From positions 1 to 31,081 of the IMG/VR virus record IMGVR_UViG_3300005941_000022: a DNA stretch of 31,081 nucleotides; one strand, written 5' to 3'. The position numbers were made by a program, and so were the translations under genes. The notes under the pieces were generated by a model, which worked only from the letters and a program-made list of their open reading frames with translations, had not been told where the DNA came from and did not search any database. Source of the stretch: a virus (lineage: Duplodnaviria > Caudoviricetes). Shown piece by piece: positions 1 to 30,957 of the stretch (positions are counted from its first letter, which is position 1; each line of letters begins with the position of its first letter).

Positions 1-1460
1 TCAATGGCTTTTCTCCATTTGGTATCTGTAGTCTCTTCAGCTAGATCATTTAACTTACCGTATATGTTATGAATATCGCCGCCGACTTCATCCATAATAT
101 CTACCTCAGCTTCATTAACTTCAACTGCTTCAAAAGCTGGAACAAGATCTCTATCACCATAAACATCGACCATGTACCACTTCTGGTCTCTTTCGTCGAA
201 TAGGTAAATATATTCTGCACCCTGTGCGTCAGCATCGTTAACATATTTCTTAAGGTTCTTAACAGTACCCATCATTGGCTTCAAGCTGTTTTGATCGCCG
301 TAGAACTTCATCTTGTCTGGAGAAACCTCTAGACCAGAGTTATCACCTTTACCTAGAACTGCATCAACGTCAGTACCTTTTTTGTAGCCCTTCTTAATAG
401 TTGGAAGCATGTGCTCTGGGTATGAATCGTAATGTGTGTATACTGAAGCGATTTCACCAGACTTATAGATCTTACCGAACTGGCCTCTAGTACCTTCCAT
501 GATAGCAGTTACTAGATCAGTTGTTGCGAATGCGATAGATTCGTTTAGATCGTATTTAGAGATTGCTTTGTAAAGCTTGTTAGCTGCAGCTTCTTCACCA
601 ATTTCTCTTAGGAAATCAACTGTGCCGTTAGCGATTGCATAACCATCCCAGCCTGCAGCTGAAGCGATATCAGAACCCTTTAGACCTGAAACCTTGCCCC
701 TTGACGCAGAGCCGATAGCTTTAGAAGTACCCATTTCTTGGTGGAAATTAGCATCTTCCATTGCATCTGCATAAAGTTTAGCAATACCGTTAAGGTCTTT
801 AATGCCAGTCTTCATCCAGGCTGAAGCAACCATTTCTCTATTCTTGTTACCTTCTTCGATAACTTCAGCCTCAACTGATTCGTTAGACTTGTTTTTCTTA
901 GCAAGAGCTGCAAGAGCTTTACCAACTAGAGCAGTGTACATCTGTGCAACTTGAGCAAGTGATTTACCTCTTGTTTGACCAACAGTCTTATCACCAAGGA
1001 CTAGACTACCGCCGTCAAAGTAGATTGAGTATGGGTAATCGAAATCACCAGGCGCCTTATCAATACCAGCAGCTTTAGCCATTTGAATACCAAGGGATCT
1101 TAGGATATAGTAACCCTCTTGATCACCGTAGCCGGCTCTCTCACCCCATTTTTCATTACCATATTTCTTTACTATAGAAGCAGCAACTTCAGGACTAAGG
1201 TCTATGCCCATAGCTTCTTTAATAGTCTCAACTGATTCGTTAGTCTTTTCGAATTTGAAATTACCAACTAATTCAGACATGAAATCCTGTAGTTTGTCTT
1301 CAGTTACGTCAGCAATAGTAGCCGCTTCGTATTTTTTAAGAAGCTCAGCAAATGCAGTGGCAGAAGTTGCTCTTTTTACATTTGTTTCTTCAAGTGTAGC
1401 TTTCTCTTTTAGCTGTTTTTTAACGTCTGAGAAAGACTTAAATGATTGAATACGTTCCAT
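1..1460 (-). CDS. Partial (3'-truncated by the window edge) modular protein of at least 486 aa; putative internal head/ejected cargo polyprotein
   Basis: Not in the ORF track. Manual translation from ATG at 1460-1458 is open to the window edge: MERIQSFKSFSDVKKQLKE...TNESVETIKEA...SNESVEAEVIEEG...LNESIAF...IMEGTRGQFGKIYKSGEIASVYTHYDSYPEHM...EYIYLFDERDQKWY...FEAVEVNEAEVD...KWRKAI. A GATATATA motif lies 43 nt upstream. The CDS is well supported; the function is inferred. Confidence 0.85.
   Translation of the reverse strand, partial: MERIQSFKSFSDVKKQLKEKATLEETNVKRATSATAFAELLKKYEAATIADVTEDKLQDFMSELVGNFKFEKTNESVETIKEAMGIDLSPEVAASIVKKYGNEKWGERAGYGDQEGYYILRSLGIQMAKAAGIDKAPGDFDYPYSIYFDGGSLVLGDKTVGQTRGKSLAQVAQMYTALVGKALAALAKKNKSNESVEAEVIEEGNKNREMVASAWMKTGIKDLNGIAKLYADAMEDANFHQEMGTSKAIGSASRGKVSGLKGSDIASAAGWDGYAIANGTVDFLREIGEEAAANKLYKAISKYDLNESIAFATTDLVTAIMEGTRGQFGKIYKSGEIASVYTHYDSYPEHMLPTIKKGYKKGTDVDAVLGKGDNSGLEVSPDKMKFYGDQNSLKPMMGTVKNLKKYVNDADAQGAEYIYLFDERDQKWYMVDVYGDRDLVPAFEAVEVNEAEVDIMDEVGGDIHNIYGKLNDLAEETTDTKWRKAI
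870..886. repeat. 17-nt direct repeat copy (ctcaactgattcgttag) encoding an NESVE linker
   Basis: Exact match to 1227..1243; both copies are in frame in the 1..1460 ORF. Confidence 0.85.
1227..1243. repeat. 17-nt direct repeat copy (ctcaactgattcgttag) encoding an NESVE linker
   Basis: Exact match to 870..886. Confidence 0.85.
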
Positions 1461-1502: not shown

Positions 1503-3014
1503 TTATATATCCCCTTCAAAAGATACCTTTTTGATTTCGTAGCTGAACTTCTCCTGTCTGTAAATCTTTTGTCTAGCTAAACCATGTTTGTATAAGTAAT
1601 TTTGGTGGCCATCAAAACAAATATCATCAACAAAATCAATGATATTTACAGAATCTTTTGACTCGTGCTGTCTAAGACCACGGCCAATAGACTGTCTAAT
1701 AATAACCTCAGACTTAAATGATTCTGTAAAGAAGATGTTGTGGATTTTCTTAATAGAGATACCAGTTGAGAATGTACCATAAGAGGCCACGATAACTACT
1801 TCGTCGCCAGCTTCCATTTTCTTCTTGTATTCTTCTCTAATATCCTTATCAGTACTACCATCAACATAGTAAACCTTTTTGTCGCTCTTTCTTCTCAATA
1901 ACTCATATAGTTTTTTACCATGTTCGATTCGATGGAAAAGAACTAGTGAGTTTTTAGGAACCTTTGAAACAACATTAACAATAAAATTAAGTCTACCTGG
2001 TGATTGAATAATATAGTTTTGTTCTAACTGGAAAACATCTTTGTTCTCATATCTGTTTGTCGAGAGTTCCATGAATGCTTTTCTGGCAGTCTCAGGTGCA
2101 TAGTTCATTTCAATGATCTTAACTTTACACCCTGCAATGTGGCCTTCTTGTTGTAGGAAAGAAGCCTTAACCTCCGTGATTAAAGGCCCAGTATATGCCA
2201 TGATAGTTAACCTATCTAATGTATTATCTTTAGGAATGGTTCCAGACAGGCCATATCTATATGTTGCCTTATCACATTTCTGTAGGATAGTCTTAATCGA
2301 TGTTGACTTAGCCTTGTGTGTTTCGTCTACAATAACACAATCAAATTGATCAAAGAAGTCTTTACCTTTTTTTACAAGTGATTGGTAAGTTCCGATAACA
2401 ACATTTCTACTGTCCTTGATCTTTTGACCAGAGTAGACTTGTTGTACCATCATCTGTACTCTGTTCTCATAGTTGTATTCAGCAAAGTCCTCAGTGGCTT
2501 GTACAACCAATGAAACGTTTGGAACAACAAACAATATCTTTTTAGCGCTCTCCTTCTCTAGCATGTATGCAATAGTAAGGAATGAGATCATGGTCTTACC
2601 TGCTGAAGTTGCAAGCTCGGACAATGATCTTCTAAACTTTAAGATATTAAATGCTGCTTCAAGCTGATAGTCTCTAGGTGTTAACTCACTACGCTCAAAG
2701 AACTCAAGAGACCAGGCTTCAAAGCCTTCGGCTGTAATATTCTTGTCAAAGAGTCTAGTTATACCGTTGATCTTTAACTCGTATTTGTACTGCTTACAGA
2801 TCTTTGTAATTTCTTGCCATAGACCAGAAGGGATCCACTTGTTATCTTTAATATAAGACACATAGCCATCCCACACACCTCTTTTGACCAGTGGGTTAAA
2901 CCTCCAGCCTTCGATGCGTCTTGTTAACGAAATATTCAACTGTTCTAGTTCTAGCTCTGTAGCAGCATCGATTCTTAAGAACTGGTTGTCTTCTGTAAGC
3001 GTTAGCTCCACCAT
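1503..3014 (-). CDS. uvsW: UvsW-like superfamily 2 DNA/RNA-DNA helicase
   Basis: PRDYQ Q-motif, LATSAGKT (Walker A), VDETH (motif II), GLSGT (motif III), ASYGTFSTG, QSIGRGLR (motif VI); N-terminal 'GVWDG' typical of T4-like UvsW; adjacent to uvsY. Confidence 0.93.
   Translation of the reverse strand: MVELTLTEDNQFLRIDAATELELEQLNISLTRRIEGWRFNPLVKRGVWDGYVSYIKDNKWIPSGLWQEITKICKQYKYELKINGITRLFDKNITAEGFEAWSLEFFERSELTPRDYQLEAAFNILKFRRSLSELATSAGKTMISFLTIAYMLEKESAKKILFVVPNVSLVVQATEDFAEYNYENRVQMMVQQVYSGQKIKDSRNVVIGTYQSLVKKGKDFFDQFDCVIVDETHKAKSTSIKTILQKCDKATYRYGLSGTIPKDNTLDRLTIMAYTGPLITEVKASFLQQEGHIAGCKVKIIEMNYAPETARKAFMELSTNRYENKDVFQLEQNYIIQSPGRLNFIVNVVSKVPKNSLVLFHRIEHGKKLYELLRRKSDKKVYYVDGSTDKDIREEYKKKMEAGDEVVIVASYGTFSTGISIKKIHNIFFTESFKSEVIIRQSIGRGLRQHESKDSVNIIDFVDDICFDGHQNYLYKHGLARQKIYRQEKFSYEIKKVSFEGDI
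1504..1511 (-). promoter_or_regulatory. GATATATA putative late promoter overlapping the uvsW stop codon
   Basis: Minus strand reads GGG GAT ATA TAA (G-D-I-stop); the same motif recurs at other gene junctions. Confidence 0.65.
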
Positions 3015-5793: not shown

Positions 5794-5976
5794 TTAACTC
5801 TTAATAATCTCTGTCGTGCTACCATCCGGGGATTGCCACTTGGATTCTCCCATTTGTACATAACCTGTCTTAGCTAGGAAGGCATTGGCTTCCTCTTTAT
5901 TAATGCGATCACATGCGACCATATCTTCCAAAGTGGCATGCAGTCTAAGAAACTGTCCAGAGCTAATTGTTTTCAT
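5794..5976 (-). CDS. Hypothetical protein (60 aa)
   Basis: ORF 4 nt downstream of a GATATATA motif; same orientation as all neighbours. Confidence 0.65.
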   Translation of the reverse strand: MKTISSGQFLRLHATLEDMVACDRINKEEANAFLAKTGYVQMGESKWQSPDGSTTEIIKS

Positions 5977-6727: not shown

Positions 6728-7096
6728 TTAGATATTCTTACCAAGAGAAGCGCCTAGAGCAGCACCTACAAGTCTTGAAGTTAATAGATCATAGAAAATA
6801 CCTTTTTCAACACCTAGTGCCTTGGCAACAATCTTACCAACTGACTTACCTAGTGCGAAACCTGTTAGACCGCCTAGGATAGAACCTAGAAGACCCTCAT
6901 TAGTTAGTTCTTCGTTGAATCTATCGAAATCGTAAGAACCATCTTCATTTTTAAATTCCTCAAAGAACTGCTCGATTGCAGTATCAACCTTAGCCTCAAG
7001 CTCAGGAGTCCACTCAGAGTTTAGAGATTCATTAAGAATGTGCATCTCCTGCTCAGTGATTTTATTTGATTCTAGGTATTCGATAAAAGTTTTCAT
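6728..7096 (-). CDS. Small putative capsid-internal prepro-protein with a C-terminal glycine-zipper amphipathic segment
   Basis: N-terminus MKTFIEYLES resembles the T4 capsid-targeting sequence; acidic residues 1-67 end in TNE, followed by GLLGSILGGLTGFALGKSVG...GAALGASLG. Confidence 0.8.
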   Translation of the reverse strand: MKTFIEYLESNKITEQEMHILNESLNSEWTPELEAKVDTAIEQFFEEFKNEDGSYDFDRFNEELTNEGLLGSILGGLTGFALGKSVGKIVAKALGVEKGIFYDLLTSRLVGAALGASLGKNI

Positions 7097-29613: not shown

Positions 29614-30957
29614 TTACATAATGACCTTCAAGAATACTCTCTTAGTGTCTAGATCAACCTTAGTAACTTCTACTTTGATCTGTTCACCCTTAGTAAACGT
29701 ATCCTTTAGGGATGTTCCTTCTGGGAACTCTGAGATATGCGCCATACCAACTACAGAACCATGTACTGAGATGAATACACCATAATCCTTAATAGATCTA
29801 ATAACAGCATTTTCAACAATCATAGGTACCTTCAAAGTCTTTGAGAACTCTTCCCATGAAGTGTCTTCCTTAACCTCTGCAACTTCTTTTTGTGTTAGGA
29901 TAATCTTCTCATTTGATACGATCTCCTTGATCTTGAACTTAACCTCTTCACCTGGTTGGATGCTTTGAGATCTGTGTCTTTCAGCAAGGTCTTGATCTAG
30001 GTCATTAACGTGAATCATACCTGTTAGGCAAGTATTAAACTCAACGAAGACACCATACTTAGCAGAACCTGTAACACTACCAGTATACTCGTGTGTCATA
30101 TTGTTCTTCACCTCTTCGATTTGGTGTGGGATCATAGCCTGTAGATACTTTCTGTGTGATACGACAATAGTACCTTTTTGTGCAGAGAAAGAATCTGGAA
30201 CAACATACATCTTTGTGCCAATGATAGACTCAAAGTCATGTAGCTTGTTAATACCTGCCAAAGAACCTGGCATGAAACAATTAATACCTTGTACGCTGAC
30301 AATGTAACCACCGCCTGGAATCATCTCCTTAACAGTACCCATGTAAGCAGTACCACCTTCATCTGCTGCAACTCTTAGTTCAGCAAACACACGCTGCTTA
30401 GTTCCTTCAGAGATAGACGCAGTTGCGTATTCTTTCGATTCTGTCTTATCGCTAAGGATCTTAATTGAAACTTCGTCACCTGGCTTGATATCTTCAATAA
30501 CATCACGATCTTCTTTAGCTAGATCAATGTAAAGCATCTCACGATAACCGATATCAACAGTAGCCCATTTCTCACTCATAGAGTGGATACGACCAGTCTC
30601 AATACGACCTACACCAAGTTCAGAAATAGTTTCTTCAAACTGTACTGTTGAGATCATGTTGTAAAAGTCCTGTGCATATGGCTCGTGGCAATACACGATA
30701 TCCTTATGACTTCCAGTCTTAATACGATCGTTACGTCTTAGTTTGGTGTTGTGATGAAATTCATAACGATCCCAATCGAATTCGCCATTAGGCAATAGGA
30801 ATGTTTCTTCATCTGACGCATCATCTGAAAGATCTAATACGTCTACTTCAAGTGATGTTTCTTCTTGAAGCTTAACAGGAGCCTGTTCTTTCTTAGAGAG
30901 CCTCTGTCTTTTTGGTTGGCCGTTGCTATTTGCACCAGCCTCTTTTTTTGAGTTCAT
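29614..30957 (-). CDS. rpsA: Phage-encoded ribosomal protein S1 (bS1) homolog with four S1 domains
   Basis: ATVDIGY...PGDEV (D1); GYIVSVQGINCFMPGS...IVVSHR (D2); GSVTGSAKYGVFVEF...GMIHVNDL (D3); SIKDYGVFISV...GMAHISEF...KVDLDTKRVFL (D4). Confidence 0.88.
   Translation of the reverse strand: MNSKKEAGANSNGQPKRQRLSKKEQAPVKLQEETSLEVDVLDLSDDASDEETFLLPNGEFDWDRYEFHHNTKLRRNDRIKTGSHKDIVYCHEPYAQDFYNMISTVQFEETISELGVGRIETGRIHSMSEKWATVDIGYREMLYIDLAKEDRDVIEDIKPGDEVSIKILSDKTESKEYATASISEGTKQRVFAELRVAADEGGTAYMGTVKEMIPGGGYIVSVQGINCFMPGSLAGINKLHDFESIIGTKMYVVPDSFSAQKGTIVVSHRKYLQAMIPHQIEEVKNNMTHEYTGSVTGSAKYGVFVEFNTCLTGMIHVNDLDQDLAERHRSQSIQPGEEVKFKIKEIVSNEKIILTQKEVAEVKEDTSWEEFSKTLKVPMIVENAVIRSIKDYGVFISVHGSVVGMAHISEFPEGTSLKDTFTKGEQIKVEVTKVDLDTKRVFLKVIM

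Follow-up and report, generated by a model that had tools for sequence, protein, structure and literature searches.

A modular polyprotein gene beside uvsW in an uncultured T4-like huge-phage clade encodes candidate capsid-delivered cargo

The window analyzed here, i.e., a whole stretch of 31,081 nucleotides of viral DNA, starts with an open reading frame that is missing from its gene track and that raises the question of whether a tailed phage may load a polyprotein into its capsid and have it cut there into several cargo proteins, as proposed by the initial annotation. Polyproteins that give rise to separate products by cleavage are a hallmark of RNA viruses. The frame (positions 3..1460, minus strand, as are all features of the polyprotein gene given below) comprises 486 codons and runs off the contig end; it was probably missed by the gene track since the 31,081-base contig is the whole record. 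An exact 22-nt search of viral contigs for an extension of the contig returned no matches, and the full-length form was recovered from a protein collection as P0013 (749 aa; encoded on a 109.8-kb contig), which shows 100% identity across the window's 486 aa, so that the window encodes residues 1-486 of 749. Three further proteins (P0014, P0017 and P0012) are identical to the polyprotein and then either turn into unrelated C-termini (PF02562 and PF02548 are listed) or end early; these probably represent assembly chimeras.

The polyprotein gene belongs to an uncultured clade of T4-like huge phages. The window carries a T4-type gene set (uvsW, primase, gp32, RuvC, tail tube, baseplate and neck genes); both gp21 and gp23 are absent from it and are known from relatives with uvsW proteins that are 55-86% identical. 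The closest record is a 462-kb uncultured phage (uvsW 55%), and the sequencing runs that contain window DNA are of marine and estuarine origin. As the nearest cultured relatives are distant (26-31% identity on a 1137-aa protein), their mostly Bacteroidota hosts point only weakly to the host of this phage. The uvsW helicase gene (1503..3014, minus strand) is the constant upstream neighbor of the polyprotein gene. Among 80 IMG/VR loci found via uvsW, seven stop at uvsW and 71 of the other 73 have a family gene next (in one of these 71 as the second gene after uvsW); the set of first genes omits the seven loci ending at uvsW as well as L035, L036 and L081. Family members at this locus range from 145 to 930 aa, with an N-terminal domain that is constant throughout. 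The 147 non-identical relatives used below do not include P0012, P0014 and P0017 (with C-termini that look chimeric or are cut off) or the fragment P0001. At positions 29614-30957 (minus strand), the window also encodes a protein of 447 aa that has S1 RNA-binding domains (PF00575, E 6e-21) and resembles ribosomal protein S1.

Within the window, four modules follow the N-terminal leader domain. Module A (aa 83-192; 885..1214) is an optional alpha/beta module, module B (aa 204-305; 546..851) is helical, has a conserved DANFH motif and occurs at several positions as well as in a second polyprotein type, module C (aa 323-443; 132..494) corresponds to phrog_1987, and a helical module D (aa 451-514 in P0013; start at 3..110) continues past the contig end. 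Beyond the window, P0013 continues with DUF5661 (residues 533-592), a 45-aa module that also occurs in the scaffold, an acidic spacer and an end module of 63 aa; predicted cuts in this part would give new N-termini at G599 and G687. P0013 consists of nine segments, seven of which have a pI of 4.2-5.7, and the mean net charge is below zero in 11 of the 12 profiled module families. The modules were expected to be dissimilar and 100-125 aa long; they are indeed distinct, but their sizes range from about 40 to 140 aa.

The four linkers between these domains lie where the initial annotation had placed them, with every quoted position correct (N74 and E82/A83; N193 and E203/G204; N306-E307 and E322/G323; N449 and E450/A451; a slash marks a predicted cut). 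Linker 1 (aa 74-82; 1215..1241) has predicted cuts at E75/S76 and E82/A83, linker 2 (aa 193-203; 852..884) has one at E203/G204, and linker 3 (aa 305-322; 495..548) has a double site (E307/S308 and E322/G323), in which E307 and E322 are invariant among 50 relatives. Linker 4 (aa 443-450; 111..134), with a predicted cut at E450/A451, takes up a 67-aa hydrophobic module in other strains (P0018 and P0023), and loose assembly ends are found at 110 and 120 in this region. The joint consensus reads E-S-x(n)-[VIL]-x-E/[GA]. A single continuous fold across the linkers was not seen: in an AlphaFold model built on a 50-sequence alignment (pTM 0.32), pLDDT fell below 50 only at residues 1-10, 66-85, 191-205, 303-323 and 445-454, i.e., at the N-terminus and at all four linkers, where the low values are owed partly to poor alignment.

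The linker motif occurs far more often than expected by chance, with 497 copies of [VIL][NT]E[GAS] in the 147 family proteins as compared to 43 in shuffled sequences. Ahead of module starts, P3 is V, I or L (50%, 30% and 13%), P2 is N, T or E (36%, 17% and 13%) and P1' is A or G (50% and 44%), while the P1 glutamate of this logo is circular, as the segments had been cut on the motif. We also compared 800 close pairs of proteins and clustered their clean indels of at least 25 aa, with boundaries that do not assume the motif. Both ends were within 4 aa of [ILVMFAT]xE/[GAS] for 29 of the 33 indels (which include overlapping composites), as compared to 4.6% in a random-segment control; in the other four, only one end has a site and the other mostly reads E/R or E/E. 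Moreover, 51% of the starts of ungapped alignments (n = 191; background 20%) are no more than 6 aa away from a site, with a modest enrichment for their ends (36% vs. 20%; n = 221). In the relative G001, the core motif was observed five times in four head-region proteins (0.8 in shuffled sequences) and five times in 11 leader-tagged proteins (0.7 in shuffled sequences), which are small numbers, and was at chance level in the 161 other proteins (16 vs. 13.6). Internal sites are absent from eight of the 12 module families, the main exception being the long forms of module B; the sequences pooled for module B contain [ILV]xE[GAS] internally about once each (1.03, as compared to 0.45 after shuffling), so that the motif by itself is no boundary marker.

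Gain, loss and shuffling of modules at the linkers, which had been anticipated for homologs, are seen throughout the family. Cutting the 147 proteins at the motif yielded 917 segments in 92 clusters, some of which are uncut concatenations; by eye, these represent approx. 50-60 distinct modules. Based on profiles for only 23 modules, 68 architectures were found among the 147 proteins. Module swapping is also seen within the species: with 98% identity to the window, P0023 and P0024 lack module A and have the extra 67-residue hydrophobic module at linker 4. Both linkers flanking module A are encoded by a 24-nt direct repeat (867-890 in linker 2 and 1224-1247 in linker 1), and contigs from three metatranscriptome studies join position 887 to position 1245, skipping 357 nt in frame. 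In DNA run X5, the assembly breaks or forms a bubble at the repeats, module A has about half the depth, and the loose end found at 1227 matches 861-869 (a match read by eye); this half depth and the same join indicate that forms with and without module A both exist as DNA. Splicing as a cause of the 357-nt skip was rejected, as the join is present in this DNA run (loose end and bubble). We infer that recombination between linker-coding DNA is the mechanism of these swaps.

Such natural deletions between repeats would also be expected if the protein were an uncut polyvalent protein, in which the linkers are relics of fusions between neighboring leader-tagged genes and are kept as recombination homologies. 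The internal site of the long module B forms, which is presumably left uncut, and the complete leader-like peptides that five related polyproteins (P0004, P0005, P0009, P0010 and P0085) retain internally also fit this explanation. On the other hand, third codon positions vary in 27 linkers to a degree similar to background. As synonymous linker codons vary much like background, selection appears to act on the linker peptide, with DNA homology as a by-product; a fixed, att-like DNA site at the linkers is not favored for the same reason. The P3 and P1' preferences furthermore fit the protease rule and the gp23 N-terminus, and cleavage would be expected for a packaged protein that exposes L/I/V-x-E sites in its disordered joints. 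Overall, we consider an uncut polyvalent protein quite improbable.

Module C, which also argues against an uncut protein, provides the strongest single argument for a cut polyprotein. Its match to phrog_1987 starts at profile position 2, at G323, and in cultured phages it is a free protein starting with Met-[A/G/S]-T. In 8 of 8 cultured-phage homologues examined (S-SRM01, ACG-2014f, Javan123, CcrColossus, KVP40, CBB, P-HM1 and fHe-Yen9-04), module C represents the protein N-terminus at Met+1; the KVP40 homologue is annotated with a start five codons earlier and has an in-frame ATG at the matching position. Among polyprotein loci, module C directly follows hydrophobic-x-E in 80 of 80 (the best 80 of 229, with 26 distinct contexts, mostly from one clade). 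Because free homologues start at Met+1 and fused ones start after hydrophobic-x-E, the predicted cut would restore the native N-terminus of module C, i.e., the N-terminus that the free protein would have after Met removal (aminopeptidase rule: PMC10052503). When modeled alone, module C folds with high confidence (pLDDT 91.8, pTM 0.87). It retains invariant His, Tyr and Glu residues, and in cyanophages and KVP40 its free forms are found among small non-structural genes. In Streptococcus phage Javan123 (L104:2498-2842), a standalone homologue is flanked by a Doc toxin-antitoxin pair on one side and by the portal gene on the other.

Searches for functions and for further free forms of the modules gave few leads. 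Pfam found no families in the window ORF and, among 58 proteins, DUF5661 was its sole match in polyproteins; enzymatic, MuF, portal or metallopeptidase domains were not named by Pfam (58 proteins), NCBIfam (16 proteins) or fold searches, and these lists do not exclude such domains. The module C profile reached only E ≥ 0.15 against PDB sequences, and the BFVD fold search matched only uncharacterized small phage proteins. In VIA, the best match of the whole model had a Z of 5.0 (rmsd 3.3, 66 aligned), and module C gave no match to a solved structure (Z 3.8, rmsd 4.9, 75 aligned); VIA lent no support to module C as an N-terminal-nucleophile hydrolase. None of 648 scored short candidates was a standalone module A or B, Atlas had no usable match for module B and only viral clusters below 0.9 for module C, and none of 45 pattern matches to module C in prokaryotic genomes was confirmed. 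The modules, labeled effectors at the outset, are at most putative effectors, as none has an assignable function, most are acidic and one small module is also present in the scaffold.

The N-terminal leader domain (aa 1-75; 1236..1460) is a predicted core-targeting propeptide. Its F7-x-x-F10 is invariant at both phenylalanines among 50 aligned relatives, and F/Y-x-x-F/Y is located close to the start in 141 of the 147 family proteins; targeting by the T4 CTS depends on residues 4 and 7 (PMC9026906). A T4-like targeting leader had been proposed, and the F-x-x-F spacing is indeed kept, but the leader is a 75-82-residue helical domain (one long helix and two short ones; helices at 10-43 and 54-65 in the AlphaFold model), with the first predicted sites, E75 and E82, only after it, and there is no short 10-19 aa propeptide ending in L/I-x-E. 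A T4-type 10-residue CTS is therefore ruled out, as the predicted cut site does not directly follow F-x-x-F. Genes located downstream in the cluster, on the other hand, begin with short M-K-x-[FY]-x-x-F-[ILV]-N-E leaders that are near the T4 CTS pattern, and polyprotein modules also sit directly after short T4-like leaders in neighboring and other genes. As modules follow such leaders elsewhere and whole leaders persist inside the five polyproteins listed above, the linkers likely arose by fusion of leader-tagged genes.

Further leader-tagged genes were noted. The relative G001 has two gene clusters (C1 11846-19507 and 159497-163308; L093, L100 and L101) with MKxVKLFEQFxNE-type short leaders, the first of which includes a 621-aa gene whose L014 counterpart has a cytidyltransferase domain. 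In the window, a 122-aa gene (6728-7096, minus strand) starts with the short T4-like leader MKTFIEYLE, has GATATATA 12 nt upstream, and encodes an acidic middle, an LTNE/G site and a hydrophobic, glycine-rich C-terminal part; counterparts of 122-123 aa with the same leader are present in many relatives. This gene represents a candidate ejected membrane protein.

A search for the protease and comparison with the capsid propeptide gave the expected picture. T4 gp21 cuts after L/I-X-E (PMC9026906), removing N-terminal propeptides of capsid and internal proteins and shredding gp22, gp67 and gp68 (PMC9026906, PMC5694885). Both gp23 and a Pfam S77 (gp21-type) protease were found above cut-off in 5 of 5 long relatives, and the N-terminus of the relatives' gp23 carries [L/R]INE/A and IIE/[S/G]-type sites, i.e., the same type of site as the linkers. 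In the same number of relatives (L087, L089, L090, L091 and L092), the gp21-type protease is fused to a gp22-like scaffold in open frames of 632-718 aa, and two of these fusions hold the 38-aa module of the polyprotein in their acidic part.

Sharing of this 38-45-aa module with the protease-scaffold fusions of two relatives could also indicate a protein of the prohead core, or a filler, comparable to T4 gp22, gp67 and gp68, which would be packed and cut by gp21 into pieces that contribute to building or sizing the head, most of them being cleared afterwards rather than delivered. That the modules are mostly acidic, as in these T4 core proteins, that the shortest relatives consist of the leader and a single acidic helical module (L034, 145 aa), and that cleavage of T4 core proteins yields numerous fragments are consistent with this role. 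The distribution of sites is the opposite of shredding, however, since they lie between folded domains, with none inside eight of the 12 module families; at least one module, moreover, is a free protein elsewhere, namely module C with its invariant His, Tyr and Glu, which is encoded among non-structural genes in cyanophages and in KVP40. A filler role would also fit poorly with dozens of modules that are unrelated to each other and vary between strains, and we regard a core or filler role as unlikely.

The gene is presumably transcribed late. Its upstream region includes GATATATA (1504..1511), a predicted late promoter of the clade that overlaps the final uvsW codons and starts 51 nt upstream of the ATG. 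A motif ahead of the ORF had been pointed out at the outset, and it proved to be the one found before structural genes, including the protease-scaffold gene of G001. In this relative, GATATATA has 25 copies on the coding strand and none on the opposite strand, and 17 of the 25 are located 10-90 nt from a gene start; in the window, 7 of 7 copies are on the coding strand. Of 28 distinct regions upstream of the polyprotein gene, 25 contain GATATATA, with the overlap of the uvsW end at many loci inflating this conservation. Another copy is located 12 nt upstream of a 60-aa ORF (5794-5976, minus strand) between the RuvC-like gene and gp32.

RNA contigs from the three metatranscriptome studies cover the polyprotein gene and hardly cover uvsW, keeping in mind that missing coverage carries no evidential weight and that RNA libraries can hold DNA. 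Such coverage, together with the free module C homologues among non-structural genes of other phages, would also be compatible with a late cytoplasmic polyprotein that is cut outside the head by a phage or host protease and acts in the producing cell without being packaged. As the F-x-x-F leader is common to T4-like tagged genes and T4 gp21 works on assembled prohead proteins, we consider this explanation highly improbable.

Capsid-delivered modular cargo, as first proposed, is thus supported overall, and the checks that could be run matched this prediction throughout; judged from sequence, a polyprotein that is packed into the capsid and cut by a gp21-type protease into separate cargo proteins delivered to the host appears fairly probable. 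The polyprotein would be made late in infection and enter the prohead core by means of its N-terminal F-x-x-F domain, the protease is predicted to cut after the glutamate of each joint and free the modules, and the freed proteins would enter the host by ejection, while the acidic spacers and the scaffold-shared module would probably be discarded rather than delivered. A possible, rather speculative extension is that T4-superfamily huge phages use a protein-level cassette system, in which the product of any small gene dropped in frame between two linker repeats would be packaged, inactive as a fusion in the producing cell and activated when the head protease frees its native N-terminus; each virion would then inject a mixture specific to its strain, taken from dozens of small proteins whose folds are undescribed.

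The polyprotein resembles the T4 CTS/gp21 cargo system and stands outside the T4 internal-protein family. With T4 IPI, IPII, IPIII and Alt it shares an aromatic-x-x-aromatic N-terminal signal, an L/I-x-E-type site, T4-type head genes and hypervariable cargo (as described in PMC9026906, PMC3012670 and PMC5694885). T4 internal proteins are basic (PMC9026906) and carry one CTS per protein (PMC3012670); according to these accounts, each small basic protein has one tag and gp21 trims terminal propeptides only, whereas here a 75-82-residue leader is followed by several mostly acidic modules with internal sites and in-frame swaps at these sites. T4 gp22, gp67 and gp68 are shredded to peptides, while here the sites spare folded modules. 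Polyvalent proteins of phages and conjugative elements, described as containing 2-15 unrelated domains, with packaging and injection proposed for them (Iyer et al. 2017, PMC5512222), share the concept of a multi-domain injected protein with disparate domains and rapidly shuffled architectures (PMC5512222, PMC7824862). They have recognizable enzymatic and MuF, portal or metallopeptidase domains and, as described in PMC5512222, no repeated prohead-protease linker; in the present polyproteins, Pfam names DUF5661 only, and a protease-type motif is found at every joint. The ejection proteins of SPN3US and phiKZ are similar in that they have long N-terminal propeptides with several sites and Glu-directed cuts, and differ in that, as reported in PMC10052503, they are processed by another protease family with an A-X-E rule and yield one mature protein per gene.

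A cut polyprotein as a cargo strategy of tailed phages was not found in the literature searched (main texts, largely non-subscription), which contained no description of gp21-cut cargo polyproteins; for the CBB virion proteome, the locus tags looked for are absent from the main text of the paper. If the proposed reading is true, the one-tag-one-protein CTS of T4 would be extended to one leader and many proteins, and the linker would provide a sequence rule to identify the proteins that uncultured huge phages inject upon infection. Many long "hypothetical proteins" would become testable units of 40-140 residues and good candidates for anti-defense or host-takeover functions, and the turnover of cargo between strains would be explained.

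Related genes are also present in cultured phages. The Flavobacterium phage vB_FspM_immuto_13-6C (MW353177.1) encodes an 841-aa protein (gp191) that shares a module with the polyprotein P0004 (47% over 66 aa, E 6e-10) and an ESVNE/G joint, and it has a gene with a leader and DUF5661 (gp190). The 841-aa gene is part of a cluster of leader-bearing genes before the terminase, and a scaffold-like gene before gp23 in this phage has a module duplicated in tandem between VNE/G and LEE/G (L190:3928-11675 and L194:6-1247). Caulobacter phage Cr30 has a T4-like leader with DUF5661 alone, and in the cyanophages S-SRM01 and B3, modular proteins with DUF5661 (in S-SRM01 also with DUF6321) are encoded between the terminase genes (L193:3881-5710, L191:4656-5786 and L192:2151-2363, including Cr30).
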